Assembly (NCBI GenBank): GCA_965153455.1
Contig: OZ234493.1
Location: 30,122,213 to 30,186,212, forward strand
Direction: 5' to 3'
Origin: Sphagnum compactum
Lineage: Eukaryota
Length of the DNA stretch: 64,000 bases
Part shown: in pieces, positions 1 through 64,000 of the stretch
Layout of the letters: each line of letters opens with the position of its first letter
How positions within the stretch are numbered: the stretch's first letter is position 1
Notes under the pieces: model-generated
What the model saw: the letters and a program-made list of their open reading frames with translations, nothing else
Database searches by the model: none
What the model was told of the DNA's origin: nothing
Made by a program: the position numbers and the translations under genes

Positions 1-248
1 TAATCAAGGTTGTTTGGGACACTTTGCATCCCAGCTTCATGAGCAGCTTAGCAATCTGTTTGGAAGTGCTTCTATAGCAAGGAGATATCATCATGAAGCT
101 ACCAACAACCAGATTGAAATTTCATGTAGTTGTCCTGTGGCTGTTTCTGCACTCAGAAATTCTTCCATGTCAAGCATCTGAATGGAAAAACTCAGAAATT
201 CATCACAAAACATTGGTGGGATATTTGGTGCATTTTTTCAAACTGCAG

Positions 249-3200
249 GAATGTAAGAAGAGGGGTCTAAAGGTGGTTGTTGCGGGTATTCCAAAGACAA
301 TTGATAATGACATTGAAGTAAGTGGCACACACTTTTGCACACTCTAAGACTCAGCACTTAATGATTTTGGCTTTTGAGTTGGCAGAGATCTGTTTTAAGA
401 TTCTAAATCCTGAGTCTTAAACATCATGTGCTTGAATTGTGGGGTATATTCATTTAGATTTGCTGCAGAATAATAAAGGACAGCTAATTTGATTAGGTGA
501 TGGCACGATTTCAAACTGCTGAGAATTTGGAACATATGTCACCATTTCTTCAAGAATAGTAGACTGTTTTATATTGTATTTACAAAGTCCACACTGAATC
601 AAGTGGAGAGATAGGTCAAGCTTGTACATGTTTCTGTGGAGTTTCTGTCTGCAATCACAGTCATCCTTTGAAGTGTGGATGCCAAGCATCTGTATGTGTG
701 CAGGCCTCCATAGACTTTTGTACTGGATAACCCGACAATTCAAGAACATTTCTTGTCTGTGAAGCTCCACTCGTCATTCCTATTTCTCAATTTGGTTTTT
801 GGCATGGGTTGAATGTTACAGATTATAGACAAGTCATTTGGGTTTGACACAGCAGTGGAAGAAGCTCAACGTGCGATCAATGCAGCACACGTTGAAGCAG
901 AGAGCTTCCACAATGGTGTCGGCTTGGTAAAGCTTATGGGACGTTACAGTGGTGGGTGCCTTTCCTTAGTAGGAAATGCTTTTTCCTTGGTGAAAAGTCT
1001 GTGTGGTTTAAATGCTGGCACACTTTTGTAAAATGAACTGTAAGGGATTACTCCCTATTGTATCAATGCTAAGTGGGGAAAGTGTTTGGTGCAGGGTATA
1101 TTGCTATGCATGCCACTCTTGCTAGTCGTGATGTGGTATGTTTCACTCTCTCTCGTATGAATGTGGTTTGACTGTTCTATATCTCTTCTCCTGATTGCAG
1201 TACTGTCAGTTCTAATATTGTCCTACTAGATCTTCAAGCTTCTTTAGGATGATTTCCTCCCTCAGTTGTGCAGTGGACAACATGATTGTCTGGTCCTCCT
1301 AAGTTTTTGTCTATCCTGTCATATCCTCTTTTAGCCTGGATACACATTGGTTCTCTCTCTTTTCCTGTCTTCAAAGATCAATTGTTGCAAATAATGTGCA
1401 TATTGCAAAATAGTGAACACACTTTTCTTCCACCAACCTAGCAGATCTGTTTGGGAAATGGTCTGCCTTACATTCTTACCTTACTTGGGGACTTGGATTC
1501 CACGAGTGCAGGATTTATGCTTGATACCAGAAGTGCCATTTTACTTGGATGGACCTGGTGGGCTAAAAGAGTTTGCAAAGCAAAGGTTGCGTGAAAATGG
1601 ACACATGGTAATTGTGGTCGCAGAAGGTGCTGGCCAAGAGTTGATAGCAGAGACCATGGGTTCTTTGGACAAGCTCAGTGATGCCTCTGGAAATCGCTTG
1701 CTTCTTGATGTTGGTCTTTGGCTCTCCCAAAATCTGAAAGTATGTACACTTGACTGCCCAGTAATTTCTTTGCTAGCAAGTAAACTTTCACATCCATCAG
1801 TCATGGACAAAACAAATATTCATTAAATGCAAATGTAGCCTGTTTCATGCATATATTTACATTATCATTGTTGCAATATCAGGTTTTATCAGTTTTTGAC
1901 TTACTGATTTTGTCTTTTGCTGCAGAATCATTTTGTTAAGGAGTTTAAAGAGCCCCTCAACTTAAAGTACATAGGTAATATGAGCTGCTCAAATCTTCTG
2001 TTCACCAAGTTGCTTGCTAGCTGTAAGCAATAATGTATTAGAGCCTTGCTTGAGGAGTTCTTTGTATGGTGTTACAGATCCAACATACATGATTCGAGCG
2101 ATCCCTAGTAATGCATCAGACAATGTCTACTGCACCCTACTGGCCCACAGTGCCATCCATGGTGCAATGGCAGGGTACTGTGGTTTTACAGTTGGCCCTG
2201 TCAATAACCGTCATTGCTACATTCCTATCACTGTAAGTTCCTTACAAGAATTTCTGTGATGGTTACTATGTGTGTTTAATGCTGTGAAGAAGAGTACTCA
2301 GAGGATCCTGCAGGGTACATCTGTGCATTCAGAGAATTTTTTGGACATCAAGTGGCTCTTACTTGTGTGATGATTTTTGACCACAGATGCACAAATTTTT
2401 AGCAGAGGCTTTACCTTTTGAGATTCCCCTTATGCCTCCTTCCCAACTGATTCTTTACATGGCTTATTTTCCCCATCTGGCAGAGAGTGACAGCAACACA
2501 GCGACAGGTGAATATTGCAGACCGCATGTGGGCTCGTCTCCTATCATCAACAAACCAGCCTAACTTTTTGCGCTATAATAAGTACATGCAGCAACTACGT
2601 AAGCAGAATGCTTTGAAGCAAGCTTTGGAATCAGAGCAACATGTCACTGTTGCAAACTCCAACTCTGCACCATCTTCTCCATTATCCTCAACTGTAAGCA
2701 CCTATCAGCTATTTCCTCAAAGCTTTTTCCAGCATGAAGATAAGTGGTCAAAGACATAGATTGCTGTCCCTGGTCATTTGGCAAAAAGAAACATTAAAAG
2801 GGTTCTCTCCATAAAAAGTTCTGGTTTGCTGCAATGGATTCTGTATTCTACTCTTCACAAGCATCTTGGTGATAACTTCTCTAGAATGTGATGTGGATCC
2901 ACATGTGACTGGATCTAAGTTAATCTGCATCATGTGACTCTCCCAACCTTCTGGCCATATATAATCCATTGGAAAGAGGCTCTTCAAGAGGGATTTGTGG
3001 GTTCAAAACTGATGTCCAGTGTAATACTATTACTAACATGCAATCTTCAGTCAGTCTTAGCTATGTATTGCTTTCCTGGGTTGCAAATGGATGGGATGGT
3101 GCAGTCTAACCCCCAGAAAACACTGCTGGTCACATTCTCATGTGCAATTGTACTCACAGGATGGGAATGGAAATGGAAGTTCTAAGAGAGAAGATGAGGA

Positions 3201-11875: not shown

Positions 11876-12089
11876 TTCCCTGGAGCTTGGGGATAGAACG
11901 CCTTCAAGTAAGTATTGGGGGATTGTGGTGGGTTTTTCCATACAAGAGAAGAGGGAGATTAGTGTGCGTGGTGGCTGTGGAGGGTTTTTGCGTTCCTTAC
12001 TTTCTGTTGGCGGATGGCAGGAGAGCTTGAGGAAAATCAAAGTTTATAGCAAGCTGGTTGCGGCGGAAGAAGGAAGGAAGGGGGGAGCA

Positions 12090-15000
12090 ATGGATGCTTT
12101 GTGGAATTTCGGAAGTTTGAGGAGGAGTTCCGCGACCCTGGCAGCAGCTGAACAACCTCCTCCTCCTCCTGCTCATCCTGAGTTTGCAGAAAATGCAGTT
12201 ACTACTACTGCTCCCCAGGTTGAGGATCAAGTCTCCGGCAGCCAGGTTCCTGAGTCCATGGAAGGAGTGAATGGTGAGTTGGACGGAAGAGAACCAACAG
12301 AGGATCAGGTGCAGTTGGCTGAGGAAGAGGAGGAAAGGCTTACGCCTATCCGAGCACCGGTTTCCCGTGATGACGACGACGACGACGACGACGACGACGA
12401 GGATGATGATGAAGAAGAAGTAGGGGATGGCGATGTCAGCTTCGGCAGTGGCGAAAGTTTTGATAGTGCTCTAGAGCGAATGGCAGCGTCGTCTACTGGC
12501 AGCTTCGACGCTAGCCCTGCTGGTTCGTTTGTGGGTGCTGCTTCACATCTTGACAACCAGCAGCAGCAGCAGCGGAAAAAGGGTTTGGGAGTGGGACAAC
12601 AGGGCGCTCTGATGCGCCTCAATCAGATGATGAGTGGAGAGTCCACACTTGATACTGCTGTGCTTGAAGATTGCACAGAAGAGGAATTCAAGGATAAGAT
12701 TCAGGAGATTGCAAGGAGTCGGGAGTTGTCGCCTACTGATGCTAGTATTTCCAGCATTCTGGAGGCCCTTCTCCCACTGGTGCGTGCTGGAGGCGGCGCC
12801 CAGGGAACAGCATCGCAAGAGATGGAGAGCAAGGTGGGTGATAATGAAGAAGAAGAAGAGATGACTGGGAATAACGAGGATGAGCTGTTGAGCAAGAACA
12901 ACAGAGCTGTGGAGGGTGAAGGAGGAATTGTCCAGGCCGAGCAGGATCAGGATGTGGCTGATGATGAAGAAGGGATTGTCAACCAGGAAGATGATGAAGC
13001 CAAGGAGGATTTGGATATCTCAGCCAGTGTTATGCCTGTTGCAAAGCTGTCAGCAGACGATGATGAGCTTATTGAAGCAGAGGATGGTATGACATTTTAC
13101 AGCTTCAGTAGCTTTTGCAGCAGGCATCTTGATCATGTTACAAATCCTCAGTTTGTTGTGTTTGAAATCTTCTGGAACCCCAAATCAGATCCTGCTGTTT
13201 GCAAATATTAGGGTTTGATTTGTTGTGATTGATCACATGTCTGTGGGAACTGCAGAAGATATTTGATGTACAAATCCTCAGTTGTTGTGTTTGAAATCTT
13301 CTGGAACCCCAAATTGCATGCTGCTGCTGTTTGCGAATATTAGGGTTTAACTCGTTGCAATTGATCACATGTCTCTGTGGGAAACTGAAGAAGCTATTTG
13401 TTTGTGTAACCCTGGAAGATTGAATGGGTCCTGGAGAAGTTGCAGTCACATTTGTGGGATATGAAGAAACTTGTACTTGGAACTGTAAGAAGAACTGTAC
13501 TAATCAATCAGCAGGGGTTCTTTGTTCTTTCAATCAAGAGCTGCGTACATGAGGGCACTCAGTTCTATTACTTGGTTAGGTCACGGTTTCCATACTTAAT
13601 ACCATTGCAGTGTTAAAAGTTCCAGAGTTGCTGAATCCTTCACACTGTTGGGGGCAAATTTAAGAGGTGCAAATTTGGTGCAGCTGATGGATTTGTAGCC
13701 TTATTAACGGCTTCTTCTTTGTTGTCAAGCACATGGGTTTTCTGTAAAGGAGGAGGAGGAGCCCTGAAATCTATGTTAGGGTTTGGAACCTTTTGCAGTT
13801 GTGGATAGTGAGAGCTACAATCATCATAAGTGAGTATTCCCATTTCTTCTGTAGATTCTACAGAAGCTTGGGACCCAGACTTCTATATAGTGATTTGCCT
13901 GAAATTTTGAGTAGATTTATTACCTACACGCTGTCAGGAGTAATGGCAGGTAGTCACTGCCATTCATGATGAAGGTGATGGTTTGATGACATAACATGAG
14001 TGCCAGTCACAAGGTTATGATTGTTGTTTTTTGAGAACTGACATAATGATTGTCTTCAAAGTGCTTTTGTGCAGTTTCCTCTGCAATCTCATAGATATGC
14101 AGATAATGGGTGCTCTAGTTTTGCAATCATATGTCTCATGGGTTTTCTGGGCCAGATGAATTTTTGGAGTTCCTGTAATTACCCGTCACCGGATTTGCAG
14201 ACAAAAGCCACCTGAGATCTAATTTTTGACAACGTGTGTGGACTAGTAGAAGGAGACATGTGTCAAGTGTCATGTGGAGACACCACTCCCAATGCCCATT
14301 GATCCAGGGAAACCACATTGCTCACATCTGCAGTGTTCTCAGGGTTTACATTTTCTATCGAATAGCTTTAATTTCTCCAATACCTTTTTCTAGGTGAAGG
14401 AGAGATTCTCTCCTTAGTTTTTTCTCCTGCAAATCACAGGGACTTTCACTGTTGCAGCATGTTTTTCACCCATTCATCTGAATCTCTAAGTTCTGGGTGT
14501 GGACTGAAAATTTTCAGCACTACTTCAGAGTATACTTGTCTTGTTTCATGATCTACAATTGGATGATGTGTAAAGAACGAAGTCCCATGAAATTGTGCTA
14601 ATCTACTATATGAGCAGTTGATGTATGGACTTTACATTATGCTACTAAACACTTACAAGGAGATCAATGTTTTGCATGCAGAGTTGAACCAGGGTGAGCA
14701 ATCCAATGATGATGAGTTTGAAGAGGCATATGAGAAAGGAGATGAAGAGGACGATGAAGCAACTTTGGGCTACACCAGTAAGGAAAATGTCAAAGAAACT
14801 TTACCAAGGATCATTGCTCGAGAATCAAAGGATGATGACACTGAGGAAGTACTGACTGCCAACCCAGCCAATAGTGAGGACAAACAAGTGCAGTTTCATG
14901 CAGATGCAGCTTTGCCTGAAGAATTGGGTTCCATCTCCATTGGAAATAAAGAGCCCATACTGCAAGAGGTCACCCAGGAGATAAAAGGAGATGGAGGAGA

Positions 15001-18000
15001 TATTGAGGATAAAACAGAGGTCCCTTCAATCTCTCAGGAAGAGAGAGCAGAGCACAAGGGAACTGATTTGAATTTGGATGCGGTTGCTGATAAAGATGGC
15101 ACTGGTGAGTTATCCATGGAGGAAACTTCACCTTTGGTTTTGTCTGAACCAGGGTTCGCACATCCAAAGGGAGATCGGGATGTGGCTGCAGCGCCTGAAG
15201 AATCCAGCAACAGTGAAGCAATAGAGTTGGAGGAGGAGGCAATTGAACCTTCACCTGCCCTGGAAGACAAGTCTGTGAGTGGGCTCGGAGAAGAAGATGT
15301 CACTCCAACAATACCTGAAGTTTTATCAGAAGAGGCTGATGGATTGCAGGCTGTAGACAACAGACCAGCAAGCGAATCTGCCATCATTTCAGAGGAACCC
15401 AGGAGAGAAGTCAAGATTGACAATGAATCTTCACTATCAGGTGTTCCCCAACAGGTCAGCAGCAACGCAGTTGCAGACTTTGAGAGTGGAGAGACCAATG
15501 CTCCAGTTGACGTGGTGAGTGATGAAGATGTATCTGAGAGGCAAACCCTAGATTTTCCTGTTGCCACCACTGAAGATTTCATCAAGGAGGAGGACAGAGA
15601 CAGCAAAGCAACAGAAGCACCTGTTACTGCTGAGAGTGACACTACTGTAGAGGCCGCTGATGTTGATGTTTCACTTCCAGACACAGTCAAATCAGTGGAA
15701 CCTGTAACTGAGACCAGGGAGCATGCAGAAACGGAGGCAGAGGCTGAGAGTGAACTTGCCACTCAGAGGGAGTCTCAAGCTGGAAATGGCAACTGGGATG
15801 GGGAGGATGATGACGAAGAGGAAGAAAATGATGATGAAGATGATGATGATGATGAGGAGGAGGAGGAGGAGGATGGTACTGGTAACCTAGATGCTGCCAA
15901 AGCCTTGGCTGCATTAGTCAAGTCAGCCAGTAGCAGAACTGGTAAATTCTTCAATGCAACATTCTCTAGGTCAAGATATATTGGAGTAGTTTCAAGTAGG
16001 ATTCCATGGTTTTCCTTGGTCTTAAGGCTTGCATTTGGTTTTAGGGGCTGCAATGGACTTTGTGTTTACCAGTAAGTCAGAAGACAAACTGAGATGACTT
16101 TCCTGGAGTTTTGAACAATAATGTACAGGGATCATCAAGTGGATAGGAAGGCAATCTAATGCAATATCTTGCCTTTTGCAACATTTTGCAGATTCTGCAG
16201 GCAGGAATGCTAACCCCCCATCATTAGGTGCTGCGGGGCCTTCTCTTCCACAACGACCCACGGGACGTACCCGATCTGCCACTGCATTGGAACCAGCTAG
16301 CAGGAATCCACCACGTAGTAATGTGGCTACTGCTTCGCAACTTGCTGCTCCAGCAGAGGACAATTCCTCAAATGGGGATGGAAATGATGGGAATGATGAA
16401 ACTCGTGAGAAACTCCAGAATATAAGAGTCAAGTTCTTACGGCTTGCACACCGCCTTGGCCAATCTCCTCAGAATGTTGTTGTTGCACAAGTACTGTATC
16501 GCCTGGGGTTGGCAGAGCAGCTAAGAGGGGGTGGATCAGCAAGCCGAACAGGTGCCTTCAGCTTTGATCGTGCAAATGCTATTGCGGAGGAGCAGGAAGC
16601 TTCTGGGCAAGAGGAGGAGCTGGACTTTGCCTGCACTGTTTTGCTTCTTGGGAAAACAGGAGTTGGAAAATCAGCCACCATCAACTCAATTTTTGATGAG
16701 CCTCGCACAAGCACTAATGCTTTCCACCCATCAACAAAAAAGGTGCAGGAGATTGTTGGCAATGTTCACGGCATCAAAGTACAACTCTACCCCTATCTGG
16801 ATGTCTTTCATTTGATTATCCCATTGTCAGAAGCAAGCCTCATATTGTGGATGTTTGTATGCATGGTCAAACTACAGATGTTTTCAATTTGACAACCATG
16901 TGAACTACTGATGTTTCAACTCTGAAAAATGTTGCCAAGTCCCATCCTATATTTAGGGATGCCCTTTGGAAGTGTGCACATTATCTTGCTGCATAGGCCT
17001 TACGGAGCCTTTGATACCATCCTCAGTTCTTTTTGTGCTCTAGTCTTGTAGCTTGTCAAAACCATTTCAAGTTGTGAAGCCACAATGCTGTTGCAAGTAA
17101 CACCTTGTGACAGTACATGTTAAGTGCAATTGCTAAATTTTCATGTTAAATCTGATGACAGGTCAGGGTGATAGATACTCCAGGGCTGCTACCTTCTGTC
17201 TTGGACCAGCAGCACAATGAGCGGATCATGGGTTCAGTGAAACAGTTTATCCGAAAGTTGTCTCCAGACATTGTTCTCTACTTTGACCGACTTGACATGC
17301 AAAGCCGGGACTATGGAGACCTGCCTCTTTTGCGCACCATCACAGACCTGTTTGGGGCTGCTGTTTGGTTCAATGCTATCGTTGTTTTAACCCATGCTTC
17401 ATCTGCCCCTCCTGATGGGCCCAATGGTGTTCCACTCAGTTATGAGATGTTTGTAGCCCAAAGATCCCATGTAGTACAGCAAACAATTAGACAAGCAGCT
17501 GGAGATATGAGGCTCATGAACCCCGTCTCCCTAGTGGAGAATCACCCTGCCTGCAGGACTAATCGAGCAGGACAGAGGGTTTTGCCCAATGGCCAAATTT
17601 GGAAGCCTCAGCTGTTACTGCTTTGCTTTGCATCAAAAATCCTGGCTGAGGCTAATTCACTGTTGAAGCTTCAGGATACTGGCACTCCTGGAAGACCCTT
17701 TGGGCAACGTCAACGAGTGCCCCCCCTCCCCTTCCTATTGTCATCCCTTCTGCAGTCCCGTGCACAGCTGAAAGTGCCAGATGAACAAATGGGAGATGAG
17801 GATGATACAGATGAAGATGATGATGATGAAGACTCAGACGGTGATGATTATGATGAGCTTCCTCCTTTCAGGTAGGGCTCATTACACTTACACAAGCAGC
17901 TCTTCAATGTAGTAGCTCCAGTAGGCATTGTGCTGTAATAGATATACCTTATGGTGGGATTTTTTTGTGTACATCAGACCTCTTTCAAAGGAAGAGTTGG

Positions 18001-19129
18001 AGGAGCTAAGTAAAGAGCAAAAACAACAGTATGCAGAGGAGCTGGCCGACCGTGAGAGACTGTTCCAGAAGAAACAGTGGCGTGAAGAACTTCGACGGCG
18101 CAAGGAGATGAAGCAACGTGCTGCAGCCATGTCCAAAGAGGAGCTGGCTGAGGGGGTGGATGAAGATGGTGGAAGGGCTGCAGCTGTCCCGGTTCCAATG
18201 CCCGACATGGCTCTTCCTCCCTCTTTTGACTCTGACAACCCTACTCACAGGTTCTTTTCAACAAGATGGCTCAATTTCATTATGGTGGTTCGATTAAGTG
18301 TCACTGGTTTGAATAGAAGTTGAATAGTAGATTGATCTAGCCCTTACGATTCTTCCATGGCTACTACAGGTACCGTTATTTGGAGACTGCCAATCAATGG
18401 CTGGTACGTCCAGTGCTGGAAACACATGGATGGGACCATGATGCAGGTTATGACGGGTTCAATGTAGAGAAACTCTTTGTGGTTGCAGACAAAATTCCTG
18501 CATCCATTTCAGGTCAGGTTACAAAGGACAAGAAGGAAGGGCAAGTGAACTTTGAAGCTGCAGCTTCATTTAAGCACGGAGAAGGCAAATCAACATTGGC
18601 AGGATTTGACATCCAGACTGTTGGGAAGGACCTTGGTTACACGTTGAGGTCAGAGACACAGTTCGATAACTTCAAAAGGAATAAGACAACTGCAGGGCTA
18701 ACGTTTACTCTCTTGGGTGACACCATAGCAGCAGGATTGAAGCTTGAAGACCGGCTTCTTGTTGGTAAACGGTTTAAGATGATTGTGAATGGTGGAGTTC
18801 TGACAGGGCGGGGGGACAAGGCCTTTGGGGGAAGCTTGGAGGCCACATTGAGGGGAAAAGAGTACCCATTGAGCCACACCCTTTCAACTCTGGGGCTTTC
18901 TGTCATGGATTGGCATGGCGATCTGGCAATTGGTGGGAATTTGCAGTCACAGTTTATGGTAGGGAAGACAATGATGGTGGCAAGGGCTAATTTGAACAAC
19001 CGGGGGGCAGGCCAGATTAGCATTCGGGCAAGTAGCTCTGAGCAGCTCCAAATGGTTTTGATTGGGATTATTCCAATTTTGCGGTCCCTTATCAACTCCC
19101 AGTTTGGTACTGCTCAACCTTCACAATAG
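12090..19129 (+). CDS. TOC159: Translocase of chloroplast 159-family preprotein receptor GTPase (Toc132/Toc120-like G and M domains). Exons 12090-13086, 14682-15941, 16192-16778, 17162-17871, 17978-18250, 18370-19129; 4587 nt = 1528 aa + stop
   Basis: Acidic N-terminal A-domain; DETREKLQNIRVKFLRLAHRLGQSP; P-loop GKTGVGKS; VIDTPGL; PDIVLYFDRLD; IVVLTHA; NPVSLVENHPACRTNR; M-domain VPMPDMALPPSFDSDNPTHRYRYLE, GWDHDAGYDG, SSSEQLQ. All five introns are GT-AG and phase-consistent, and the total length is a multiple of 3. The symbol denotes the family; exact orthology is not determined. Confidence 0.95.
13139..13397 (+). repeat. Tandem duplication of ~130 bp (2 diverged copies) in intron 1 of the Toc159-family gene
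   Basis: tacaaatcctcagtt(t)gttgtgtttgaaatcttctggaaccccaaat...atattagggttt...ttgatcacatgtct..gtggga occurs at ~13140 and ~13269. Confidence 0.85.
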
Positions 19130-52326: not shown

Positions 52327-53424
52327 AAAATTTAAAAAAAAGAAAAAGAAAAAGAAATAAACACTGCTTTCTTGCTTTCTTGCTTCCTTCTTTCCTTCCC
52401 TACCTAGCAAGGAAAAGACATGAAAAGGAAAAATGGCCAAGAAAAGGAAAAGACAGATTGCCCGATCTTCATGCTCCAAAAGCATTAAAACAAAGGAGCC
52501 TCTGGTAGGTAGGTAGGTGGGTACGTACTTATTATGCTTTTGTACCGCATTGAGAATGTTGTGATATGCGCAGCTGTAGCCTATTTAACAACACCAAATT
52601 TATTTACTTGACTGACTGGACCCAGTCAGTCAGGACTGAGGAGTCTTTTTTTATTCCTAATATTGGCTACCACTATTATTTTTGGCCTGGACTAATAGCC
52701 CTTCTTAAGGACCACCCTACCTATTGTGCTTGTGCTGTCCTGATTGTTATGTTCTTTCATGACATGTGTTCTTGTCCTTTTTTTCTCTGTTTTTTTTTTT
52801 TTTTGGCCTTGTATTTCTTCTTCTGGATGGGTTCCAAATTCCTGTCCCTGCTGTTTTTATAAATTGAATTTTCTTTTAGCGTAAATCGGGTGGTGACCGA
52901 ACATTTAAACGTTCAGGGCAGGCCGGAACCAAGGGGAGGGCTCCATTGTTTTTGGTGTCCAAACTAAACTTGAACCTCTCCTCTTGACTCATCTGACACA
53001 GCAACAATCGTCATAACAAACGAATTAAAAATGAGAAAGTTATGGCGACCCAAATTAAAAATGAGAAAGTTATGGCCCCCCAAAGTAGAAGGGGTCAAAA
53101 ACTCAAAAAAAAAAAAAGACAAAAAAAAAACAAATCACCGAACATTACAAAGGTCAGTTCTCGAACACCCTGGTTAAAAAAACGAACAAACACAGGTAAA
53201 CTTAACTAAGCTTGGCTTGGAGGTTGTTTTCGCCAACTGGGGCTAAAAACACAGAACAAGAGCGAACCAGCTGGCGCTGTCTCTGCGCGACGGCGCTTTC
53301 TTCTTTTGCGGTTTACAACGCAGCTGCAGAGACGCCATAGCCGCTCACCACGACCTTGCTGCTCTCGTCGCTGTTGCTGCTGCTTGGTGCCTCCGCTGGG
53401 AAGGTCGTGAAGAAAACCGAGGGA

Positions 53425-56400
53425 ATGTGGAGAAGAAGGCGTACTGACGATCAGGTGATGATCATGTCGACTCTGATGTCGTTAACGGCGCTTGCCTTTT
53501 TCCAAGTTTTGGTGCAGCGGAATTCTCGAGGTTTGTGGCCAATTGCAGAAATTTCTTCTTCTTGTTGCGAAATTTGAGCTTTCGCTTTAGCTAGATGAAA
53601 GAAACGAAACAAACAGTAGGGGAGAAGAGAGAGAGAGAGAGCGAGAGAGAGAGAGAGAGAGAGAGGTTGTGAGCGCTTCTGAAGTGTTTAGAGTCTTTCT
53701 GCACTGTTTTGTTTTTGTTTTTTTGACGAGTTACGTTCTGAAGAGGAGATCTGCCGTCGTTTCCAGTTTTGGTGTGGCCATTTGTAGTTTTGCTTCCAGA
53801 ATTTTACGCAGATATGATTGACATTGCTGTCATAGTGAGGCTTGATCCAAGTCGCAGCAGCCGAGCGTTGCGTACAATGCCTCGACTTTCTGGTGGAAGT
53901 GTTGTCAATCTCGCTCATTTTCACTGTTTTGTTAGCCGTCTACACCTCCTCGTCTTCAGTTTCCAACAACGTGTCCTCCGGCTGTTGAATGCAGGCAAGA
54001 ACAACTCCGAGCATTGCTTGCAATTGTCGTAACTCCGGAGTGTTGCATAGCACCCGGGCTTTCTACAACCGCTTTCGCTCCATTACCTTTTGTCGACTGT
54101 TCCAACTTCCTCAAGCCAGCAGAGCATTGTTTTCTTCCCACCGGCAAATCGGGAGAAGTACGGTAGACATGTGTGGCCTCTATCCCTTCTTATCTACTCG
54201 GAGGCTCTTCAGACTCGCCTAATTTAGCAGCTCTTGTGGCAGTACATTCTGTTTTGCTGTAGGGAGGAGGAACTGACAGCTTGCATTTTTTACGACACGC
54301 AAACCGATCTCCATGTCACCTCTTTTCTGAGACTCCTGGCAGCAGATTACGATCCCGTTTGCTCCTTCGTCCGTCCTTCTCTTGCGCCGGATGCGCATAA
54401 TTCCAATACGTCTTCATTGCGCCTTCCGATCGACAGGCATTGGCCCGTGTCGGACTCTCTAATGGAAACTGGTAGCACAACCATCTGTCTGGCAGATTAT
54501 GCGTCCGGTCGTGTCAAAATTGTGCCGCTAAAAGCTGGAGCGGGTGCAGTTGCTAGAGAGAATGGCCCAGAAGACGGCAGCTATTCAGTCGAGGATATCC
54601 CCAAACTTTTAAGCACACAGGTTACGGACAGTCGAGAGTTTGCATCGCTCTCCGACACGTTACAAAACGGCGATCCACGCCTGTGCGAAGCGGTTCTGCG
54701 CTCTGTGTTTGCTCCAAGAGCGCCCGGAGAAAGTCTGGACGACTGCGTACAAAATGCAGAGATTGTGAAGCGGGCCTTCACTCTCCACGACACTGTCTAC
54801 TCTAAGGCCGAGAGCCGTGCTCTCAAAGTGGCGCAGTACCGAAGAGCTGGTATGTACATGTTACACTCCAAGTCATTCATACAATCCCTGTGATTTCTTG
54901 GTGCTTTTCAGTCTTCAGAAAGGGACTCGTTACTGCTGCACCCCCACCTCCCCCCATGAGCATCTTAGCTTTTTGTAAACGAATTTTGAAGTCCTGCTCT
55001 GAGATTTTTCAAATGTTGCAAACAGAGACTAGTCTTGTGTGTTTCCCTTTGGTTAAGAAGAAGAAACTCCTGACCCAACCCTTTTTTTTCCTTTGGATGC
55101 AGAGGTTCAGATGAAGTTGGAAGCATTAAAGAGAGATGATGACATGCTGGTGCCCCCAACACAATTTGCAGATCCTGTTGTATACCAAAGCTGGAAAGTG
55201 GAAGAGCTGCAGAACCTCTCAAACCTAGTCAATCTGTTTGGCAATCTGCCTTCATTTTCAGGTGGTGTGCAGGTGGAGATTCTGTCTGGAGAAGATCTGA
55301 AGCCTATGAATGCATCCTCCTGTATCTTGCCAGCCTTCAGCAAGAAGCCTGCTGAAATATCAGTCTACTGTTCTGTTTCCATCTTGCCAGCAAGGGCAGG
55401 CACAACTCCCTCTCCTCCTGAATCTGAAGATGGACTTGAGAGGACCCCAGTGTTCTTCAGTGAAGTTGTAGTCTGCAATGGAAATGCTGAATGGCAGACA
55501 AGATCATCATGGATACCTATTGGCAGGTGCATGTTCATTCACTCAGAAGCTCCTTCCTCAACAGTGCGCATACCCAGCAATTTGCAAATTGTTAAAGAAT
55601 GTTAGTCCTTGAAGTTGCAACAAAGGTTACAAAAGCCTCTCATGGCATGTTACTCATATCATGAAGTTTCAAAGTGTGGATACACTATACAAAGGTAAAA
55701 CTGACTAGTCCATCAAGATGGGATTGTTGGAATCAGATTAACTAAGCAGGGGAAAATGTTTGTCCTGACAGTTCACAGGACCGAATTCTGATTGAAGTCT
55801 GGGAGAAGGTTGAAGCAGTTAAGGCTGCAGATCCTGATCCAGAAACAACAGGTGAAACGCCAGGTGGAATCAGCAACTTTCGACAATTTGTAAGAAGACA
55901 AAGCTCCAAAAGAAAGAAGAAGGTGAGAACTGACTAATTGACTTTTAAACATGACGTTTGCAGGATTTGGTGTGCATTATGAACAAGCTTTTCCCACTAA
56001 AAGCCTCTTTGGCAGTTTCCACTCAAAGAAGGGTTTCTTTCAGACCCAATATTTGGCAGCAACAAAATTTTCAGTCTGCAATATTGTTGAGCGTGAATTC
56101 AGATAAGTTGAGTAGCATTGACATTGATGCCACTTAGGAAGAATCATTAGGATACCAAATTTAGAGTATAGTATACCAGGGTCCAAGTTAATGACACTAC
56201 TGCATTGATACTCTTGTATACAGCTAAATCTGGCTGTCACTGACATCATATATTTTCTATTGTTTAGTCAAGTCTGCACAGAAAATATAGATGTTATTCT
56301 TATGTGGAGCTAGAATCTTATGCAGGTAGCTCCATGGAGTAGTGATACTTTTCTAGGGCAGGTGATAGTATCATTCAGCCATATTGAGTCACAAGCTCTG

Positions 56401-59358
56401 GCCCAAGGAGGCGTACAAGGCCAGTCACCAGCTACATCCTACATGCTTGCGGATGAGAGAGGAAAACAGAGTATGAGCACCATCCAGTTGCAGTTTAGCT
56501 GCTCCTGTGAACGCTTTTACAGGTACTTGATTTTAACCATGGCCCTATGCATCTCCATTGATCTTGGTTTTGTGATTCAGTTTTCAATGTTATTAAGAAT
56601 CCGTGTTCTGGAAAATAGAGATCGGAGGAGACTTTGAATCTTTTGATGTTGGATTGTGTTCATTTAGGATATCCAAAGTAGTACAGGGGTGTGATAATCC
56701 CTCTGTTTGCCTGTTTGTTGCAGGGATGCTCCACCCAATAAGCTGCTTCTCATGCCTCCAATTGAGGAAATAGAAACAGCTTTTGACAACCTAGTGCGTC
56801 TTGCCTTCCATGCCGAGAAGGGAGGTAGTTGCTTTTTTACTCCTACTACTGCAAATCATTCACAGAGTCAAGTGATAGGGTCTCCTTTTTCGTGAACATT
56901 ATATCTATTGCACTCATGTTCAACAACACCTGAGATGCTCACTTCAGATTCTTTGAACACTGGCTCATACATAATAAAGAGGAATAACCAAATTTTGTGC
57001 CTGTGGGCAGGTGTACTCACCTTATTCCTGACATCCTCATGCACACATTCTTCGGTTTCCAGTTTATGTGGATTAAAGAAAACTAGCCCTAAACATGTAT
57101 CTGTGGGCATTGTCATTTCAGTAACACAAGATGGACTTCGCCTTTCTTTGCAGGGGGCTGGCAGCTTGGACAACAATGGAGGCAATTAGTGTATGGTTTT
57201 GGAGCACACTATCGGATTCGGGAAGAGAGGTGTGTGTTGGGTTTGGTGAACATAATGGCTGGGCTATTTCAACAAGATGCTCGATATTGTGAAGGAATTG
57301 TCCAAGAATGGTTACCTGCTTGCCATGCAGCCAAAGATGGAAGATTAACACGAAATGAGCTTGCACTACATTGCAATATTGTTGTCTGTATGGACCTCTT
57401 TCTTCATTACCTCAGCCTTCTCTACTGTTTCCTTCTGCATTGCTTGTTTCTCTGTCTGAGCAGTTCATTCTGTCATTTGACACTGCTGGTTCTTCTTCTC
57501 TAGGAAGCCTGCATTGTTATATGAGTATCTATGGATTCAATGATTTCAGTGCCTGGTGGAAATTCTTCTCTATTGTTCTATTTGTTGGGGCTCTGAGTTT
57601 TGAACTGTTGATCATCCTTCCTGTGATAACGGGACTTCATGGATATGTTTCATGGACTTTTTCACATGCCATTGTGAGCAATGGACTGTGTGCCAATTAA
57701 TGGAATCCATGTTCACAACACAGAACTTGGTGCTCTCATGTTTACCCTTTGTAACCTAGCCATAATGTATGTTGAATTTATTCCCCATTGGATCAGCCCT
57801 TGTGTTATGTACAGATAAAACACTTGTGTAGTGTAAAACAGTGGCTGTTGGTTTGCTGTTTTATTGATTGAGTGTGGATTTCTCCAAGCTTCCCAGTGGA
57901 AAGATCAGGTTTCCCCTTGTGCAACTTGAGCCCTCAGTCACAGTCAATTGCTCAGTCACATCAACCTATATGCTCTTTTTGTTTTCAGTAAAGGTCTGGA
58001 AAGTGAATCATGGGTTTTGTTGTTGGTGGTGGGGTAGCTCTGATGAAGCCAGCACTCAACTCCATTGAAAATTTCCATTCTACTTTCCCAGAAAACAAGC
58101 CAGCTGGAGTAATTCCAAAATTGATAGAGCTTTTGGGTCTCATCCTCCGGTGGGATCCAGACCCATCTGAAATTGTTGTTCCATTGCGGACCTGGATTCA
58201 GGTGGGCTTCTCACAGATGAGTCTGTACAAATAATTGTAGTTTATTCAAATGTGCAAGCCAGAACAGTGGATGATCATCACCACTGACCTTTCACATTCA
58301 GCTGTTGCAGAACTGCATTTTTCTATTGTTATTTTGTGCTTTGGATTCATCTTTTGTTCCTACAAACAGGATATGAAGATGGACTCAGAAAGTTTGCAGT
58401 AGTTTTACTCATTTGTGATGCTTGGGGATTCCATTATGAGTATGCAGAGTGGCTGTGAGCACCGTTTAAATGAGCAAGTGCTTGGAGAAACTGATGGTGG
58501 CAGCATGAGGGAGATGAGTGCACAGTCACTAGTCCAGGGAGTCCGAATGATCCGCGCTGACCTTATTGAGTATAAGACAACATTCAAGAGTGCTTTTCCA
58601 GATAATTTTGATCTTCCTCAAGTCACAGCTTCAGTGTACTATAGGCTGGTAATCAACCGGAAAACTGGATTTTTTCTCAATTTATGAATCATGGATATAG
58701 CATACATCAGCATTAATGTGGGCCACAAGTATTACTACATGTATGTGATATTTGAAATTGGAGGGTGACCCCAGCAATCTGCATGGACAGACCAGAATGT
58801 TGTCCCAAATCTGTGCAGCAGAGTTGTTATAATAGTGTTTGCACAGGAGAAGTATCTAATGGTTCTTCTGGCTACAGATTTCTCATTATGTTGTCACCTT
58901 CATTGGAGCTGCTTCACTGAAGACCTCTACAAAAGAACTGGAGGTACAGGCATCTCTCTTCATCTATTTTGTCCCACCTTTTCCAGCACTGTAACTGAAA
59001 ATTTGGAAATCTCAAACCTGCAATTGTTCATGCTCAATCTTCATTGGCATGGCACAGCTTCTTCTATCAAGGCAGTGGTTGACTGTAATATGGGCTAGTT
59101 AAGTAACAGGCATAGGGTTTGCATAGATGTCTCCACAAAGCACAAATGGTGTTTGGGTTAAGGGTGTGGGTTTACAACAGTAGGTTTTGAAATGTGTCCA
59201 ACAGCACTAACATCAAAATCTTGCAGGATCTGGTGGTTGAGTTATCTTTGCTGCATGAAGACCTTGAGAAATCTGGGGCCCAGTTCAAGCTCCTTGATCT
59301 CAGGAGCCTTCTCAATGGGCACGATAGCTCATCTCAAAAGAATGGAAAGTGTGTATAG
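53425..59358 (+). CDS. C2-domain + MUN (Munc13 homology) protein, Munc13-4/BAIAP3-like. Well-supported exons 54343-54849, 55103-55526, 55772-55922, 56326-56522, 56724-56824, 57154-57387, 58038-58201, 58448-58648, 58878-58943, 59227-59358; 5' exons (53425-53454, ~53995-54157) uncertain; 3' end probably frameshifted/truncated
   Basis: Ten consecutive exons join in frame through GT-AG introns. C2 strands DRILIEVWEK...SDTFLGQVIVSF...YMLADERGKQSMSTIQLQFS are followed by helical MUN-like motifs WRQLVYGFGAHYRI, SIENFHSTFPENKPAGVIPKLIELL and FKSAFPDNFDLPQVTASVYYRL. The family assignment comes from remembered motif similarity, not a search. Confidence 0.75.
53627..53664. repeat. (GA)n microsatellite in the probable first intron of the C2-MUN gene
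   Basis: Read directly from the sequence. Confidence 0.9.
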
Positions 59359-59720
59359 GTTGAAAGTGATGTCACCTTCTTGGTTCACCCCAAAAACAGT
59401 TCTTTTCCTGTTCATTGCTCACTTCTTGCTCAGAATTTGGTTGTAAATGCAGACTCGAAAAGCCAATATATAGCACCAAAGGTTTTGTGCTACATGAGCT
59501 CAGGAGGTAACAATTCATTAATGTATTCCCCAACTATTAAAATGGAGTAATCATTTTGTGGTTGCAGCTTTACTTTGGGAACAGTTTTGTTTAAATCCTC
59601 CTGTGTTTTGAGCAGACAAATTGCAGCTACACCAATGCAAACACCATTCTGTTGCTCAATCACAATATGAGCGAAACAGATACATTTGCAAAAACCAGAT
59701 CAAGTATGTATATCCATCCT
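59227..59720 (+). pseudogene. Apparently disrupted 3' exons of the C2-MUN gene (59227-59358, 59453-59506, possible relic ~59570-59705)
   Basis: The entry frame stops at TAG 59356-59358. A shifted frame (AHLKRMESVYR) splices in phase to LEKPIYSTKGFVLH, and a further 1-nt shift would give HSSG, resembling the MUN HSSS motif. Confidence 0.45.
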
Positions 59721-60139
59721 GCAACTCTCTTTAATTAGACAACACTTGTACGCACTGGATGGGTGGATTGAACTGCAGTGTTCATCATGTTTCAATTTGG
59801 GAGTTTTTTTTATCAAGTTTTGCTGCCAAGGTTTTGGGTGTGTTTTTCTGTACTCTACTTAGCCAGTCCAGCAGGGGGCATTACACCCTGAACTGGAGTG
59901 GAGCTCAAGTTCTGGGTTTTGGGAGGTCTGGGGTTTGGGTTCAGCAGGGCATTATACCTGAATTGAGAGTGGAGCCCAAAGTCCAGGGTCTACTCTTGGT
60001 TCACATGGTGTAATTGACACGCCCTTTTACTCCAAGCTCCTCCGGGCTTGTCCAAGTCCTGGGCAGGCTTCTAATCTTAACCTAGCTACACATGCCCAAA
60101 CATATGCCCACATTAGGTTACACCCACTCAACTCACATC

Positions 60140-60770
60140 CAAGGTGAGACACCACCTAGCACTAGACGAATCTAATACTAGATTGTTACAAACTTCCACT
60201 CATGTTCACAGCCTTAAATCACCCAAAACCTCTGTGGCTTTGTCATGTTGTCAAACCTTACAAGAGGACTCTCATGAGCAAGTGGAGGCAAGTGTTACGC
60301 TTCTTTGTGAGACACTCTTAGTTTTGGCACCATTGATGGCAAGCCCTTGCCTTGTAGTGTCTTGCCACTTTGCACTTTCATGCACTTGGGTCCTACATCG
60401 GGAGTCATGTGAAGGAGTTGAGTGTCGTGCTTCTTTCTGAGACATTCCTAGCCCTTGCCTTGTGGCATCTTGTCACTTTGCATCTTCCTAACACTTGGAC
60501 ACCAAGCTCCATGAAACATTCAACTTCGTTGCCGAATGTAAATTCACCACACTTCTTTGTGCCCTCATCAAATGGTCCTGGGGTGGATCCCCACACAAGG
60601 GGCATGTCAACCACCCCCATTGTAAGAATGTGAGTGGTGAGGGCCATGAGGACTTTAAGAGGACGAAACCAATGAAGACATTCTTGGTTATTTCCTTTGT
60701 GCCAACTTCTCTTGTCTTTCAACATGAAAGAAATCAAGGGCAAGTTCTATACATTGCATCATCTTTATGA
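60140..60770. mobile_element. Degenerate LTR-like repeat
   Basis: CpG-depleted, moderately GC-rich block with recurring gcccttgccttg motifs like the terminus of LTR family B. Termini were not resolved. Confidence 0.3.
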
Positions 60771-62699
60771 TGACTTCTACACCTCTTCCAAGGCAACTTC
60801 AAAATGACTTCCTTAAGGCTATTCACACAGCAACTCCATATCAAAGTTTCCCAAACAAAGGTGGGCTTGCTTTTTGCAAAGGATGCAAATGTATCAACAA
60901 ATAATGCTAAATTGGGCTTTTTAGTCCAAATCTTTTTCACCATTTTGGTACATGGGTTGTGAATCCATGCATGGGGTTGGACCCCCATTTGGAGACATGT
61001 TCATGTTACAATAGCATGAACGTTACCCCATTCTTGCCCAAGTGAGCCCAAACTTGAAGGAGGTTATTGTTTACAAGTTAACCAACTAAGTTCCATTCGT
61101 ATTGGTTACCGTTACCCCATTTCATTCATCAATTTTGTCCATTTAACTTTTTGCACATAAGATAGACTGCAGTTATGATGCAATTAGGTACATACATAAG
61201 GGTTTTGTGCATATCATCTTCACTTTTGAAAATTGATGTTCACATCAACACCTTTTTGTGTCAAGGGTCATCTGTTTCTCATAGGTTTTCTTGACCCCAA
61301 GTTCATGGCCTCTTTCAACTTCAAATTTCACCACCATGTCCTAACTGGTCCAAGTGAGATGGTTTCACCGATCTTGATTCCTGTAAATGACACCCTTCCC
61401 AATTCACCATATATTGTTTACCATAATGGGAAATATGTTTAGCATGCATAATGCCTTCAACTTGTCCAACAAATCTTTGTTCAATAATGTTGAATTCAAG
61501 TTGTATGACTCCTTAGGTATTTATTGGAAGATAATTAATTTCTTTAATTTGCCATGTGTGCTTGGAACCATGTGTAGTGTGAACAAGGTTCCAGTTGTTT
61601 GTGTTTATCCCCACATTGTGGCTTTGAAGTCTCATCTTTCGTGTTTTGAAATTGCATAACACACAAGAGAAACAAGCTTTGTTTGTTCATGCTTTGAACT
61701 TGGATTCTTGCAATTTATAGGTGAGTTTTCTTGAAACACAAAAGATCAAACTAATTGTTTTGTGCTACAACTAAACTAGTTGGTTTTTTGCACAAGGATT
61801 ACTTGTTTGGGAACTTTGTTTAGATGTCGTGTGGTGTGTTGGTTGTGTTTTTGTTTGTGGAATTACAACTAATAAAAGTTGCAACTAAAGAGCATTTCTT
61901 GGTGTACTCTTTGAGTTGGAAAAATCATTTGGAGATTTTTGTGATTTCATGATTGTTTTTATTTAAAACTCCATGAGGAGTTGAACCTCAAGCAAGGCCT
62001 AATACCTTGGAATTGTGAAAAAACATCAAAATCAAAACAAGAGGAGGCCCCTATTTTTATCACAAAAGCCCTTTTCATTTTTTTCTTTTGTTCTTTACAT
62101 CTCACTTTTTCCCTCTCTCACTCTCACATTCTCCTAATCAATAATAACACCAACAATAGGCACCAACAAAGGTAGTAGATTGTAGGCAATTGCCACCACC
62201 TATCATCAATCGTCATTAGCTATAGGGCGAAGTGAGGCATTGTTAGGGTCATCATTGATAAGCAAGCAATGCACGGTTGCAACAAGTGGTAAGGAATAAA
62301 AGAAAAAGAGAAGGAGGAAAGGAAAAAAAGGGGAAACAAAACAGGTGGTGGTGGAGAATGATGGGTTTTTTTGCCATTGCTAAGAGCTTGAAGCTCCTCC
62401 TTGAACCTCCAAGGTTTGGGCTCCGTTAAAGGCTCGGACACCTCAACAAAAGTTCAAAATAAAGGGGTTAATGGGGTCCAACCTAGGCCTCCTTTTTTAT
62501 TTTTTGGTTTTTTCAAAATTCCCGAACTTGGTGGGACCCCTTTGGAACCATTGGAACAATTTTTTCAAGTTTTGGAATTGGATTATGGGGGCATTAGTGG
62601 GGATCAAATACAAAAGATCCAAGATGTCCAAAAGGAAAAGGATGATACACCATACACAAGATTGGCATGGTTTACTAAGGAAAACAATGACATTTTCAT

Positions 62700-63440
62700 G
62701 GAATAACAATTGGTGCAATTGTACTTGTCCAAGTAGGACAAAAATGTGCAAAGGATGGTCAAACCTCAATTCATCATTACTCATGAAGATCGTGCCACAT
62801 TAGAAGAGGCATTCCACGTTGTGGAAAAACTTGATTGAGGATTTTGTGTGGTGAAGATGGTGAGCTTGTTGCAATCACCATGACCACCCCAAAGGATTCC
62901 AAGAAGGAGGAATCAATGGCTACTCTCGATGGGAAGGCCAAAGGAGGCCAAAAAGGGGATCAATTTGGGCCTTTTCCATCTTTTTTAGCAGAATAAGGCT
63001 AAAGTATTATGTGTTCGACTTGTGGAGGTCCTAACATGAGAAGGAATGCCCCAACAAGGCCAAAGCATCTACATCCAAATCCACATCTTTTAGTGATGAG
63101 GAATGTGAACAATGTGATGTTCATAATCATGACATTTACCATTGTTACTCATTGCATCCAAAATTTTGTTCCAATAAACCCATTGACAACAAGGATGGTA
63201 AAGGCAAAGGGGGACGTGGGGGAGGCAATGGTTCTCAAACCAAGGGCAAAACCACAAGTAAAGCTTCAAATAAAACCAATGAACAAGGTCGACGTGGTGG
63301 CATGGCCATTACTGAATACCAACTTGTTTGGTTGGAGGAATTGATCATTAATATGGTAGCACAAAAGTTGGAGGAGAAGGCGACAAAATTAAATTCCACA
63401 AGTGTGCCTATATATTTAGGATTAGATCTTTCTTCATGAT
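62700..63440 (+). mobile_element. Degenerate LTR-retrotransposon gag relic with zinc knuckle(s)
   Basis: Intact CX2CX4HX4C knuckle CEQCDVHNHDIYHC-YSLHP at 63104-63145, followed by the Gly/Lys-rich KGKGGRGGGNG. A frameshifted second knuckle CSTCGGP..HEKEC lies at ~63012. Flanking stops. Confidence 0.65.
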
Positions 63441-63880
63441 TCTTTTGTGGAGTAGGATTTGTTGATTCCATGGATGTCCCCATGATGTTTATATTTTGGG
63501 GGTGAAACATCATGTTACATTTTATGATCCATGTGAAGTGGATTCATTAATTCATGCAATTCCACGATCTAATTCACATTCCAAAATCGTGTGGGGTAGA
63601 TGAGGGTCTTGACCTTCAAACAAAGGAAGCTTGGCACTAGATAGGTATTCCTTAATCATTTATGTTGGTCAAAATTGTCCCAATTAAAACATCCACATCC
63701 CCAAACATGGGGCATGTTCACACAAGACCAACAAGTAGACGATTTTCCTAACAACATAATCAGAAAAGGACATCCCTCCTTTATGGCAAGTTGCAAATGC
63801 CAAGTTGTTTAACCTTCCAATTCGGCCTGCCATTGATCGAACATTAATGACACCAAGAATGGTGTTGATGTTTAACAAGG

Positions 63881-64000
63881 TGTGACAAATGCAAACATTA
63901 GATGCCATCTTCCAATAGATGGAATTCATCCATAGTGTTCATCCATAACTCTTAATTAATCTTAATTTAGTTAAATTTCCATTAACTTTTGATTAACTCC
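63881..64000 (+). mobile_element. 5' end of another family-A LTR, cut by the window edge
   Basis: tgtgacaaatgcaaacattagatgccatcttccaatagatggaattcatccatagtgttcatccataactc closely matches the sequence from 31346 onward. Confidence 0.8.

Follow-up and report, generated by a model that had tools for sequence, protein, structure and literature searches.

Munc13-1 (UNC13A) features the module order C1–C2B–MUN–C2C (5ue8, 7t7c, 4y21, and 6nyc), in which a C2 domain directly precedes the MUN rod. Munc13-4 (UNC13D) and BAIAP3 have a short, C1-free layout, C2A–MUN–C2B (9la9), in which an N-terminal segment is followed by a C2 domain and the MUN rod. The SNARE-binding activity of CAPS and Munc13 maps to the MHD1 region and beyond, as stated in PMC3849599, and the Rab27a surface of Munc13-4 comprises residues 651–778 according to a preprint (bioRxiv 10.1101/2025.03.22.644518). 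In plants, MUN homology is represented by PATROL1 (DUF810); PATROL1-type plant MUN proteins have no known domain besides MUN, whereas the animal and fungal ones carry C2, as PMC3731666 puts it. The gene described here lies on the plus strand of a 64,000-nucleotide stretch of Sphagnum compactum DNA (assembly GCA_965153455.1, contig OZ234493.1, positions 30,122,213–30,186,212), referred to as the window, to which all coordinates refer. Its 685-residue product comprises N-terminal helices, a C2B-type C2 domain, and MUN subdomains A–B, and it is probably a truncated membrane-bound adaptor, regulator, or competitor and not a priming factor alone. Fungal Git1/Ync13-type C2-MUN proteins and CAPS share with it the order in which a membrane-binding domain precedes a MUN rod, but not the accessory domains, Git1 having a third TPR-like domain and CAPS a PH domain.

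The peat-moss gene is real, expressed, and nuclear. Ten coding exons separated by GT–AG introns join into a single open frame of 685 codons, which runs from the ATG at 54462 to the TAG at 59356–59358. RNA was mapped on 53000–64000 using metatranscriptome contigs of the runs X1, X4, and X6 (three studies) and raw poly-A reads of run X24. Each of the nine coding introns is represented by a GT..AG joint in at least two of the three contig runs; eight are joined in all three, intron 2 being absent from X1, and six of the nine occur in the raw reads of X24 as well. The first mate of the X24 reads always lies on the minus strand, which fits plus-strand RNA in a stranded library. The RNA runs contain 0.35–0.42 of the words sampled from 54400–59400, the exon share of this stretch being 0.41. 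An earlier, sequence-only reading of the DNA had proposed ten in-phase exons beginning at 53425. The exons and their phase are borne out by the RNA joints, and the start is displaced: The ATG at 53425 begins a 47-codon upstream open reading frame (uORF) in a leader exon, this exon is spliced in X1, X4, and X6 by a GT..AG joint 53528→53993 (cut +2; exon end 53530 to 53995), and an in-frame stop at 54225–54227 precedes the main ATG. The coding sequence, therefore, starts at 54462. The peptides quoted by that reading are all found in the spliced product, LCEAVLRSVF at aa 74–83, the basic insert at aa 302–321, SDTFLGQ at aa 327–333, and NFHSTFPENKPAGVIPKLIELL at aa 510–531. The product differs from the Sphagnum troendelagicum protein P0001 (685 aa) at 13 of 685 positions with zero gaps and is 98.2–98.5% identical to three more Sphagnum proteins, so that 672–675 of 685 residues agree with the four annotated ones. 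A search with exon 2 matched P0001 (98%), P0003 of Sphagnum balticum (753 aa, 74%), and moss proteins of 1228–1270 aa, including those of Physcomitrium and Ceratodon.

The structure of P0001 was predicted by AlphaFold2 from an alignment of 15 sequences, with a mean predicted local distance difference test score (pLDDT) of 78.6, a predicted template modelling score of 0.70, and 291 residues at pLDDT of at least 90. The model features helices at 72–176, a beta sandwich at 181–385, and helices at 403–672, the order of pre-C2 helices, C2 domain, and all-helical region that had been read from the DNA. The fold search proposed together with that reading, carried out with Foldseek, returned three Munc13-1 C1–C2B–MUN(–C2C) chains and then the Munc13-4–Rab27a complex 9la9 as the top four matches (expect values, E, of 3e-12 to 3e-8), next to which come isolated C2 domains. 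By VIA-align, residues 67..673 of the model align to 542..1161 of Munc13-1 (5ue8_B, C1C2BMUN; Z 18.6, 425 residues), and residues 68..677 to 49..595 of Munc13-4 (9la9_A; Z 15.2, 440 residues). These long rod alignments have a root-mean-square deviation (rmsd) of 16–22 Å because the rods bend differently, and hence indicate the same module order and not a rigid superposition. The C2 domain aligns to C2B of Munc13-1 (6nyc) with Z 16.4 and an rmsd of 2.0 Å over 117 of 117 residues at 22% identity; dozens of further C2 domains follow at Z 14–16.

Sequence profiles give the same order of preference. Two profiles were searched against the PDB, one built from 15 family members (A1) and one from nine streptophyte proteins only (A2). 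The best solved match of A1 is Munc13-1 (E 2e-45), with separate alignments to C2B and MUN, compared with E 5e-28 for Munc13-4; A1 also matches the C2 domains of synaptotagmin, rabphilin, and PKC, with many C2 domains at 1e-9 to 1e-3. A2 matches the MUN domain of Munc13-1 (E 1.8e-10), aligning from about aa 585 onward, and finds no C2 domain in the PDB at E ≤ 1. Its alignment to 4y21 (E 2.3e-10) extends across profile positions 645–1046, so the full-length relatives carry a complete MUN domain. In the weakly aligned middle of MUN, the Munc13-1 segment YMNLHF stands opposite "eledlla" of the family consensus. An Asn/Phe pair in this part of Munc13-1 is needed for syntaxin opening. In exon 8, SAFPDNFDLPQVTASVYYRL, which follows later than NFHSTFPENKPAGVIPKLIELL, the candidate Munc13 "FP" motif of the sequence-only reading, aligns by sequence to NQFPQELNVGKISAEV of Munc13-1. 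Pfam on the ten exon translations yields only a subthreshold Sec6 match (E 0.011, exon 8), and phmmer of P0001 or of the full-length moss protein P0007 against PDB sequences finds nothing meaningful, so that profiles or folds are required to detect the homology. In the ESM Atlas, C2 and C2+MUN clusters lie nearest (0.94, 187 features); Git1/Ync13-type and CAPS clusters are also among the nearest (C2 + MUN, 0.81–0.84), as language-model leads below 0.9 only. Taken as predicted fold and profile evidence, a C2 domain and Munc13-type MUN helices in the Sphagnum protein are supported. The homology to the Munc13 superfamily claimed by the sequence-only reading thus stands, and its narrower assignment to Munc13-4/BAIAP3 does not: The profiles favor Munc13-1, and the relatives end in a GRAM domain instead of C2B.

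The helices preceding the C2 domain contain a conserved block, CEAVLRSVFAP...RALKVAQYRRAE, and residues E76, A77, L79, R80, R119, A120, R127, and A129 in this region are invariant in nine streptophyte proteins. Within the C2 domain, the loop that links the VWEK strand to SDTFLGQ is predicted to be disordered, with pLDDT below 50 at aa 287–324, and ends in the polybasic stretch RRQSSKRKKK. In the profile alignment, this insert falls where the shorter basic insert IKSRVKQRFKRESDDFLGQ of Munc13-1 C2B sits, so the basic insertion noticed from the DNA does have its counterpart, in the same loop of Munc13-1. The Munc13-1 motifs SDPY and WDEDDD align to ISVY and WEKVEA in Sphagnum, and as judged by this alignment, the Sphagnum C2 domain lacks the usual calcium-binding aspartates. 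Protist members of the family retain them (SDPY; WD.D...DDF), whereas green-lineage members have ISVY, VWEK, and large loop inserts, with an additional insert in loop 1. The Pfam C2 model (PF00168) matches none of the nine streptophyte family proteins.

The protein belongs to a family of much longer proteins. A phmmer search of P0001 against 1.84 billion representatives gave 49 matches at E ≤ 1e-3; sources were looked up for 20 of them, of which some are named proteins and the others metagenome or run fragments. The long matches span 1053–1917 aa overall. Named long relatives come from Selaginella (1320 aa), Riccia (1448 aa), Chara (1381 aa), and Adiantum (1152 aa), with E 5e-168 to 8e-88 for these four, and, among algae and protists, from Myrmecia (1867 aa), Tetraselmis (1388 aa), the amoebozoan Soliformovum (1158 aa), and the malawimonad Gefionella (1256 aa); a second Physcomitrium protein is also present. 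The members thus span protists, green algae, and every sampled lineage of non-seed land plants. None of the 20 matches looked up in this single-sequence search with the N-terminal half is a seed-plant or animal protein—and hence none is an animal Munc13-4 or BAIAP3—and none is a DUF810 protein, in line with the expectation of a family of non-seed plants and algae. Two Streptophyta clusters of the ESM Atlas (959 aa, 58 members, 0.89; 928 aa, 53 members, 0.86) may represent this family or a diverged seed-plant relative, which limits the statement on seed plants. The uncharacterized proteins of Physcomitrium, Ceratodon, Selaginella, Riccia, and Chara annotated as MHD1/MHD2 domain-containing proteins (P0006, P0007, and P0009–P0011; 1228–1448 aa) are true orthologues of the Sphagnum protein and continue into MUN C–D and one or two GRAM domains, whereas the Sphagnum proteins have 685–756 aa.

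Pfam GRAM lies above cut-off in seven of the ten long relatives scanned; the three Bryopsida-type mosses have a weaker match that stays below it. C-terminal GRAM domains are found in Selaginella (P0009, E 1.5e-12), Chara (P0011, E 3.4e-9), and Riccia (P0010, E 2.3e-5) as well as in chlorophyte and protist members. In their C-terminal half, P0007, P0008, P0009, P0010, P0044, P0049, and P0056 match Pfam MUN or TPR_PATROL1 above cut-off; Pfam C2 is recognized only in four distant members (P0026, P0044, P0049, and P0056). The recurrence of MUN or TPR_PATROL1 and a C-terminal GRAM domain across relatives points to C2-MUN-GRAM as the ancestral architecture. Orthologues share from 59–60% (mosses) down to 29–43% identity with the Sphagnum protein, are colinear with it over aa 1–674, and have 48 invariant columns within aa 76–675 in nine streptophyte proteins. 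The tree of the shared region matches the species tree, with Sphagnum and the other mosses together, the streptophytes as a group, the chlorophytes next, and the protists outside. The Sphagnum pair is sister to the other mosses (support 100/99 and 99/99), and its branches (stem 0.19, tips 0.10 and 0.18) are not lengthened relative to the full-length mosses. The family is ancient, vertically inherited, and so far undescribed, with C2-MUN-GRAM as its full-length form. In the literature searched, neither a C2-MUN-GRAM protein nor a C2-bearing plant MUN protein is described, older MUN/MHD surveys and supplements lying outside the search; among papers mentioning both "Munc13" and "GRAM domain," none concerns a C2-MUN-GRAM protein by title or abstract. 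AT4G24610 and AT5G65440, named for comparison in the sequence-only reading, turned up there only in the gene lists of three papers. Three observations on individual members may be added. Selaginella, Riccia, and Chara (P0009, P0010, and P0011) carry two tandem GRAM-like domains and the Bryopsida-type mosses (P0006–P0008) one. The Adiantum model P0012 stops before a complete GRAM domain. In Chara braunii P0011, a segment of about 110 residues (DPVVLRCPVSDVEK to LHTSIAA) is present twice and disturbs the alignment of the C2 region, probably as a duplication that arose in assembly or annotation.

The Sphagnum protein lacks the second half of this architecture. In the alignment of nine streptophyte proteins, it is colinear with the others up to aa 674 and then enters a tail, the others running 480–750 residues further. 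The tail comprises 11 residues in paralogue group 1 (DSSSQKNGKCV) or 18 residues in group 2 and has no counterpart in the full-length relatives. It is conserved in the four group-1 Sphagnum proteins, a related tail occurs in the seven group-2 proteins, and the motif DSS[ST]Q..GK is common to both groups, which argues for a single truncation before their duplication. Identity between the two groups is only about 78%. The 11 named Sphagnum proteins listed all have lengths of 685–756 aa (685–689 in group 1, 749–756 in group 2), none being full length, and they come from five species: S. troendelagicum, S. jensenii, S. balticum, S. magellanicum, and S. compactum. The truncation is, hence, old, predates the Sphagnum paralogue split, and is fixed across the five species. 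The Sphagnum sequence ends at about position 735 of the HMMER profile, the match to the solved C-terminal module of MUN (3swh) begins at 731, and Pfam TPR_PATROL1 begins at P0007 residue 731, where Sphagnum ends. Together, these boundaries indicate that Sphagnum keeps MUN A–B and lacks C–D, the subdomain names being those used for Munc13-1. The window protein has neither the MHD1/MHD2 region nor a GRAM domain by alignment and Pfam, and TPR_PATROL1 has no Pfam match in P0001, P0003, or any exon of the window gene.

The missing half was also sought directly. A tblastn search with five relatives found nothing beyond exon 10 in the 64-kilobase (kb) window, and a hidden Markov model of the C-terminal half, run with filters off on all six frames of the window, gave a best E of 0.23 at an unrelated place. 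The C-terminal half of P0007 matched no NCBI Sphagnum protein in searches against shorter proteins (15 matches) and near-length proteins (3 matches); only Bryopsida-type fragments and three full-length moss proteins were returned. Pfam on ten open reading frames downstream (59.7–63.5 kb) recognized no credible family, and no sign of a transposon causing the truncation was seen. The sequence-only reading had taken the gene for a vesicle-priming gene that may be an ancestral exocytosis factor retained in a non-seed lineage. The protein is not a complete priming factor, ending at the MUN B/C boundary without the TPR_PATROL1/MUN and MUN C–D region, and what Sphagnum keeps is the truncated form only.

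Compared with the described systems, the Sphagnum protein has neither the C1 domain nor, by alignment, the calcium-site aspartates of Munc13-1, which is its best profile and fold match. It ends at about Munc13-1 residue 1161 and so lacks subdomains C–D and C2C, whereas its full-length relatives end in GRAM. The retained part corresponds to the membrane-facing end of Munc13-1, consisting of the C2 domain and the start of the rod. Compared with Munc13-4 and BAIAP3, the family has no C-terminal C2B, and Sphagnum covers the equivalent of 49–595 only. PATROL1 shares MUN homology, TPR_PATROL1 matching the C-terminal half of the full-length relatives; the family differs from it by C2 and GRAM, and Sphagnum lacks the very region that TPR_PATROL1 matches. 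The separation from PATROL1/DUF810 made in the sequence-only reading is therefore upheld. The SNARE region from MHD1 onward and, going by the preprint, the Rab27a surface both lie past the retained part, and neither is present in the Sphagnum protein. A Rab-binding role for the retained half, considered by analogy to older work on Munc13-4, was dropped as unsupported on the same reported position of the 651–778 surface.

Expression, gene model, and homology, as well as the relatives' architecture and the truncation point, are shown by the data; the function is deduced. With the SNARE-acting half absent, the protein is better read as an adaptor or modulator than as a priming factor on its own. 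It would bind acidic membranes through the C2 domain and its basic loop in a calcium-independent manner. It would thus be a peripheral membrane protein unable to prime SNAREs by the canonical route, and might contribute to one step of trafficking, either in the role of an adaptor or in that of a regulator or competitor. Several points weigh against this reading. Membrane binding and the cellular role are predictions. The predicted structure is that of P0001, 13 residues different from the window protein and derived from only 15 aligned sequences, and the calcium-site assignment comes from sequence alignment only. The C-terminal half was sought in the window and in protein sets only, and a separate gene elsewhere in the genome is possible; the protein searches depend on shared five-residue words, and this half evolves fast (51% between Ceratodon and Physcomitrium). 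A metagenome scan for the MHD1-start region, based on a three-sequence alignment, gave 108 pattern matches of which none was confirmed, and carries no information on this point; in genomic DNA, an intron probably interrupts the patterns. Poly-A depth is very low, with 35 X24 reads mapped, and the contigs are blind to rare isoforms, so a minor splice form skipping the stop could exist. Long downstream transcription and several upstream ATGs also fit a poorly translated or decaying transcript.

A first alternative is a split gene, in which the MHD1/MHD2-GRAM half is encoded elsewhere in the Sphagnum genome and the C2-MUN-GRAM tether works in two pieces. The cut falls exactly at a module boundary, the start of the separately crystallized C-terminal module of MUN, and the rod could be divided there; the searches for the other half were, as said, limited in sensitivity. 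However, those protein searches (15 shorter and 3 near-length matches) returned no Sphagnum sequence from a database holding five annotated Sphagnum proteomes, and the 4.6 kb downstream and the rest of the window contain nothing of this half. The fragments that were found are closer to Ceratodon than to Physcomitrium (e.g., 68% versus 52%), and since Sphagnum is equidistant from both, they come from Bryopsida-type mosses and not from Sphagnum. We regard a split gene as unlikely. Similarly improbable is a decaying remnant, i.e., a transcribed relic without protein function that is turning into a pseudogene. Half of the ancestral protein is gone, and with it the segment acting on SNAREs in Munc13 and CAPS (PMC3849599), and the upstream ATGs of the leader together with about 1.8 kb of possible transcription past the stop are of a kind that frequently reduces translation or stability. 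Of the seven exon-1 differences listed relative to a related Sphagnum, four are nonsynonymous, although no part of the protein is less conserved than this one. Against decay, frames of similar length are intact in all 11 named proteins from both groups and all five species, family-invariant residues are retained, and the branches in the tree are short. Splicing is clean, expression is seen in runs of several studies, and the fold is predicted confidently, as its 291 residues at high pLDDT indicate. A complete Munc13-4/BAIAP3-like priming factor kept in a non-seed plant is very improbable, since—for all that the C2 and MUN homology is real, 9la9 is among the top structural matches (Z 15.2) with the pre-C2 region aligned from Munc13-4 residue 49, and the ESM Atlas lists unc-13 homologue D-like clusters—the protein aligns only to Munc13-4 49–595 and Munc13-1 542–1161 and thus lacks equivalents of MHD1/MHD2 and of the Rab27a surface, a second C2 domain is absent with GRAM in its place in the relatives, and sequence profiles favor Munc13-1 over Munc13-4. 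The truncated membrane-bound adaptor, regulator, or competitor, hence, remains the preferred reading.

The coordinates of the transcript, the coding exons, and the protein regions are collected in the table.

Table. Features of the truncated C2-MUN gene of Sphagnum compactum in window coordinates
Feature	Coordinates	Strand	Remarks
Non-coding leader exon	53315..53530	+	5′ end between about 53315 and 53465; contains ATG 53425
Leader intron	53531..53994	+	RNA joints
Second transcript exon	53995..54849	+	Remaining leader, then coding exon 1; joint 54848→55102 in RNA
Coding exon 1	54462–54849	+	aa 1–129 plus one base; start agrees with annotated P0001
Coding exon 2	55103..55526	+	Gene model and RNA joints
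Coding exon 3	55772..55922	+	Gene model and RNA joints
Coding exon 4	56326..56522	+	Gene model and RNA joints
Coding exon 5	56724..56824	+	Gene model and RNA joints
Coding exon 6	57154..57387	+	Gene model and RNA joints
Coding exon 7	58038..58201	+	Gene model and RNA joints
Coding exon 8	58448..58648	+	FP...YY block aligning to Munc13-1; weak Sec6 (CATCHR) match
Coding exon 9	58878..58943	+	Gene model and RNA joints
Coding exon 10	59227..59358	+	Ends with 11-codon tail 59323–59355, stop 59356–59358
Pre-C2 helical region	54660..55242	+	aa 67–176, crosses one intron; helices 72–176 at pLDDT mostly 78–95
C2 domain	55255..56517	+	aa 181–385, crosses two introns; fold and profile matches
Long C2 loop	55806..56343	+	aa 283–327, crosses one intron
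Helical rod, equivalent of MUN subdomains A–B	56770..59316	+	aa 403–672, crosses five introns; VIA-align and streptophyte profile
3′ untranslated or read-through region	59359..61209	+	Metatranscriptome contigs

The RNA contigs start at 53315 (X1) and 53465 (X4 and X6), each right behind adapter letters. A minor alternative leader acceptor near 53958 is seen in X1 only (joint 53528→53958). The leader intron contains a (GA)n microsatellite at about 53616–53676, and a poly-A run lies at 53097–53138; as repeats, both were passed over in the RNA mapping. The spliced leader (53425–54461, plus strand) carries at least six upstream ATGs, which may exert translational control. Directly before the start, at 54336–54461 (plus strand), an open frame without ATG resembles the longer N-terminus of group 2 (SSLRL.ID...); as judged by this similarity, a loss of about 65 residues from the N-terminus also seems to have occurred in group 1. 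At the other end, the contigs run unspliced from 59225 over the stop to 59810 and continue at lower depth to about 61.2 kb. The poly-A reads extend only to the 59239–59605 bin, and no RNA joint leaving exon 10 was found in the three contig runs and the X24 reads. The part at 59896–61209 (plus strand) is transcribed in the metatranscriptomes at a depth of about 22, compared with about 76 for the gene, and has no open reading frame of a Pfam family; it may represent a long 3′ untranslated region, read-through, or an independent non-coding RNA. In one X1 contig, 56792 is joined to 57158 with 36 foreign letters between and non-canonical ends AG..GG; this contig is probably derived from the paralogue or another Sphagnum species and not an isoform. 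Elsewhere in the window, 11466–19129 (plus strand) holds a gene for a chloroplast import receptor of the TOC159/TOC132 type, in which a long, acidic N-terminal region is combined with an AIG1-type GTPase domain (E 1.6e-9) and a TOC159 membrane anchor (E 2e-112).

The family bears on how plant MUN proteins are viewed. It is a plant family that carries a Munc13-type C2 domain plus GRAM, contrary to the statement in the PATROL1 paper (PMC3731666). We tentatively suggest, at a confidence short of probable, that C2-MUN-GRAM is a third ancient branch of Munc13/CAPS-type tethers, lost before or within seed plants, and that C2-MUN(A–B) of Sphagnum is a stand-alone protein with its own function and two paralogues. 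If so, the published view of plant MUN proteins as single-domain proteins would be overturned. Bolder and weaker is the proposal that the full-length protein may serve trafficking tied to flagellate cells, the retaining taxa all having such cells or swimming sperm. Represented in Physcomitrium, a tractable model moss, the family offers a way to ask what role a C2-MUN tether has in a walled, non-neuronal cell and what GRAM does in place of a C-terminal C2 domain. Sphagnum, in turn, is a natural experiment on the front half of a Munc13-like protein alone.

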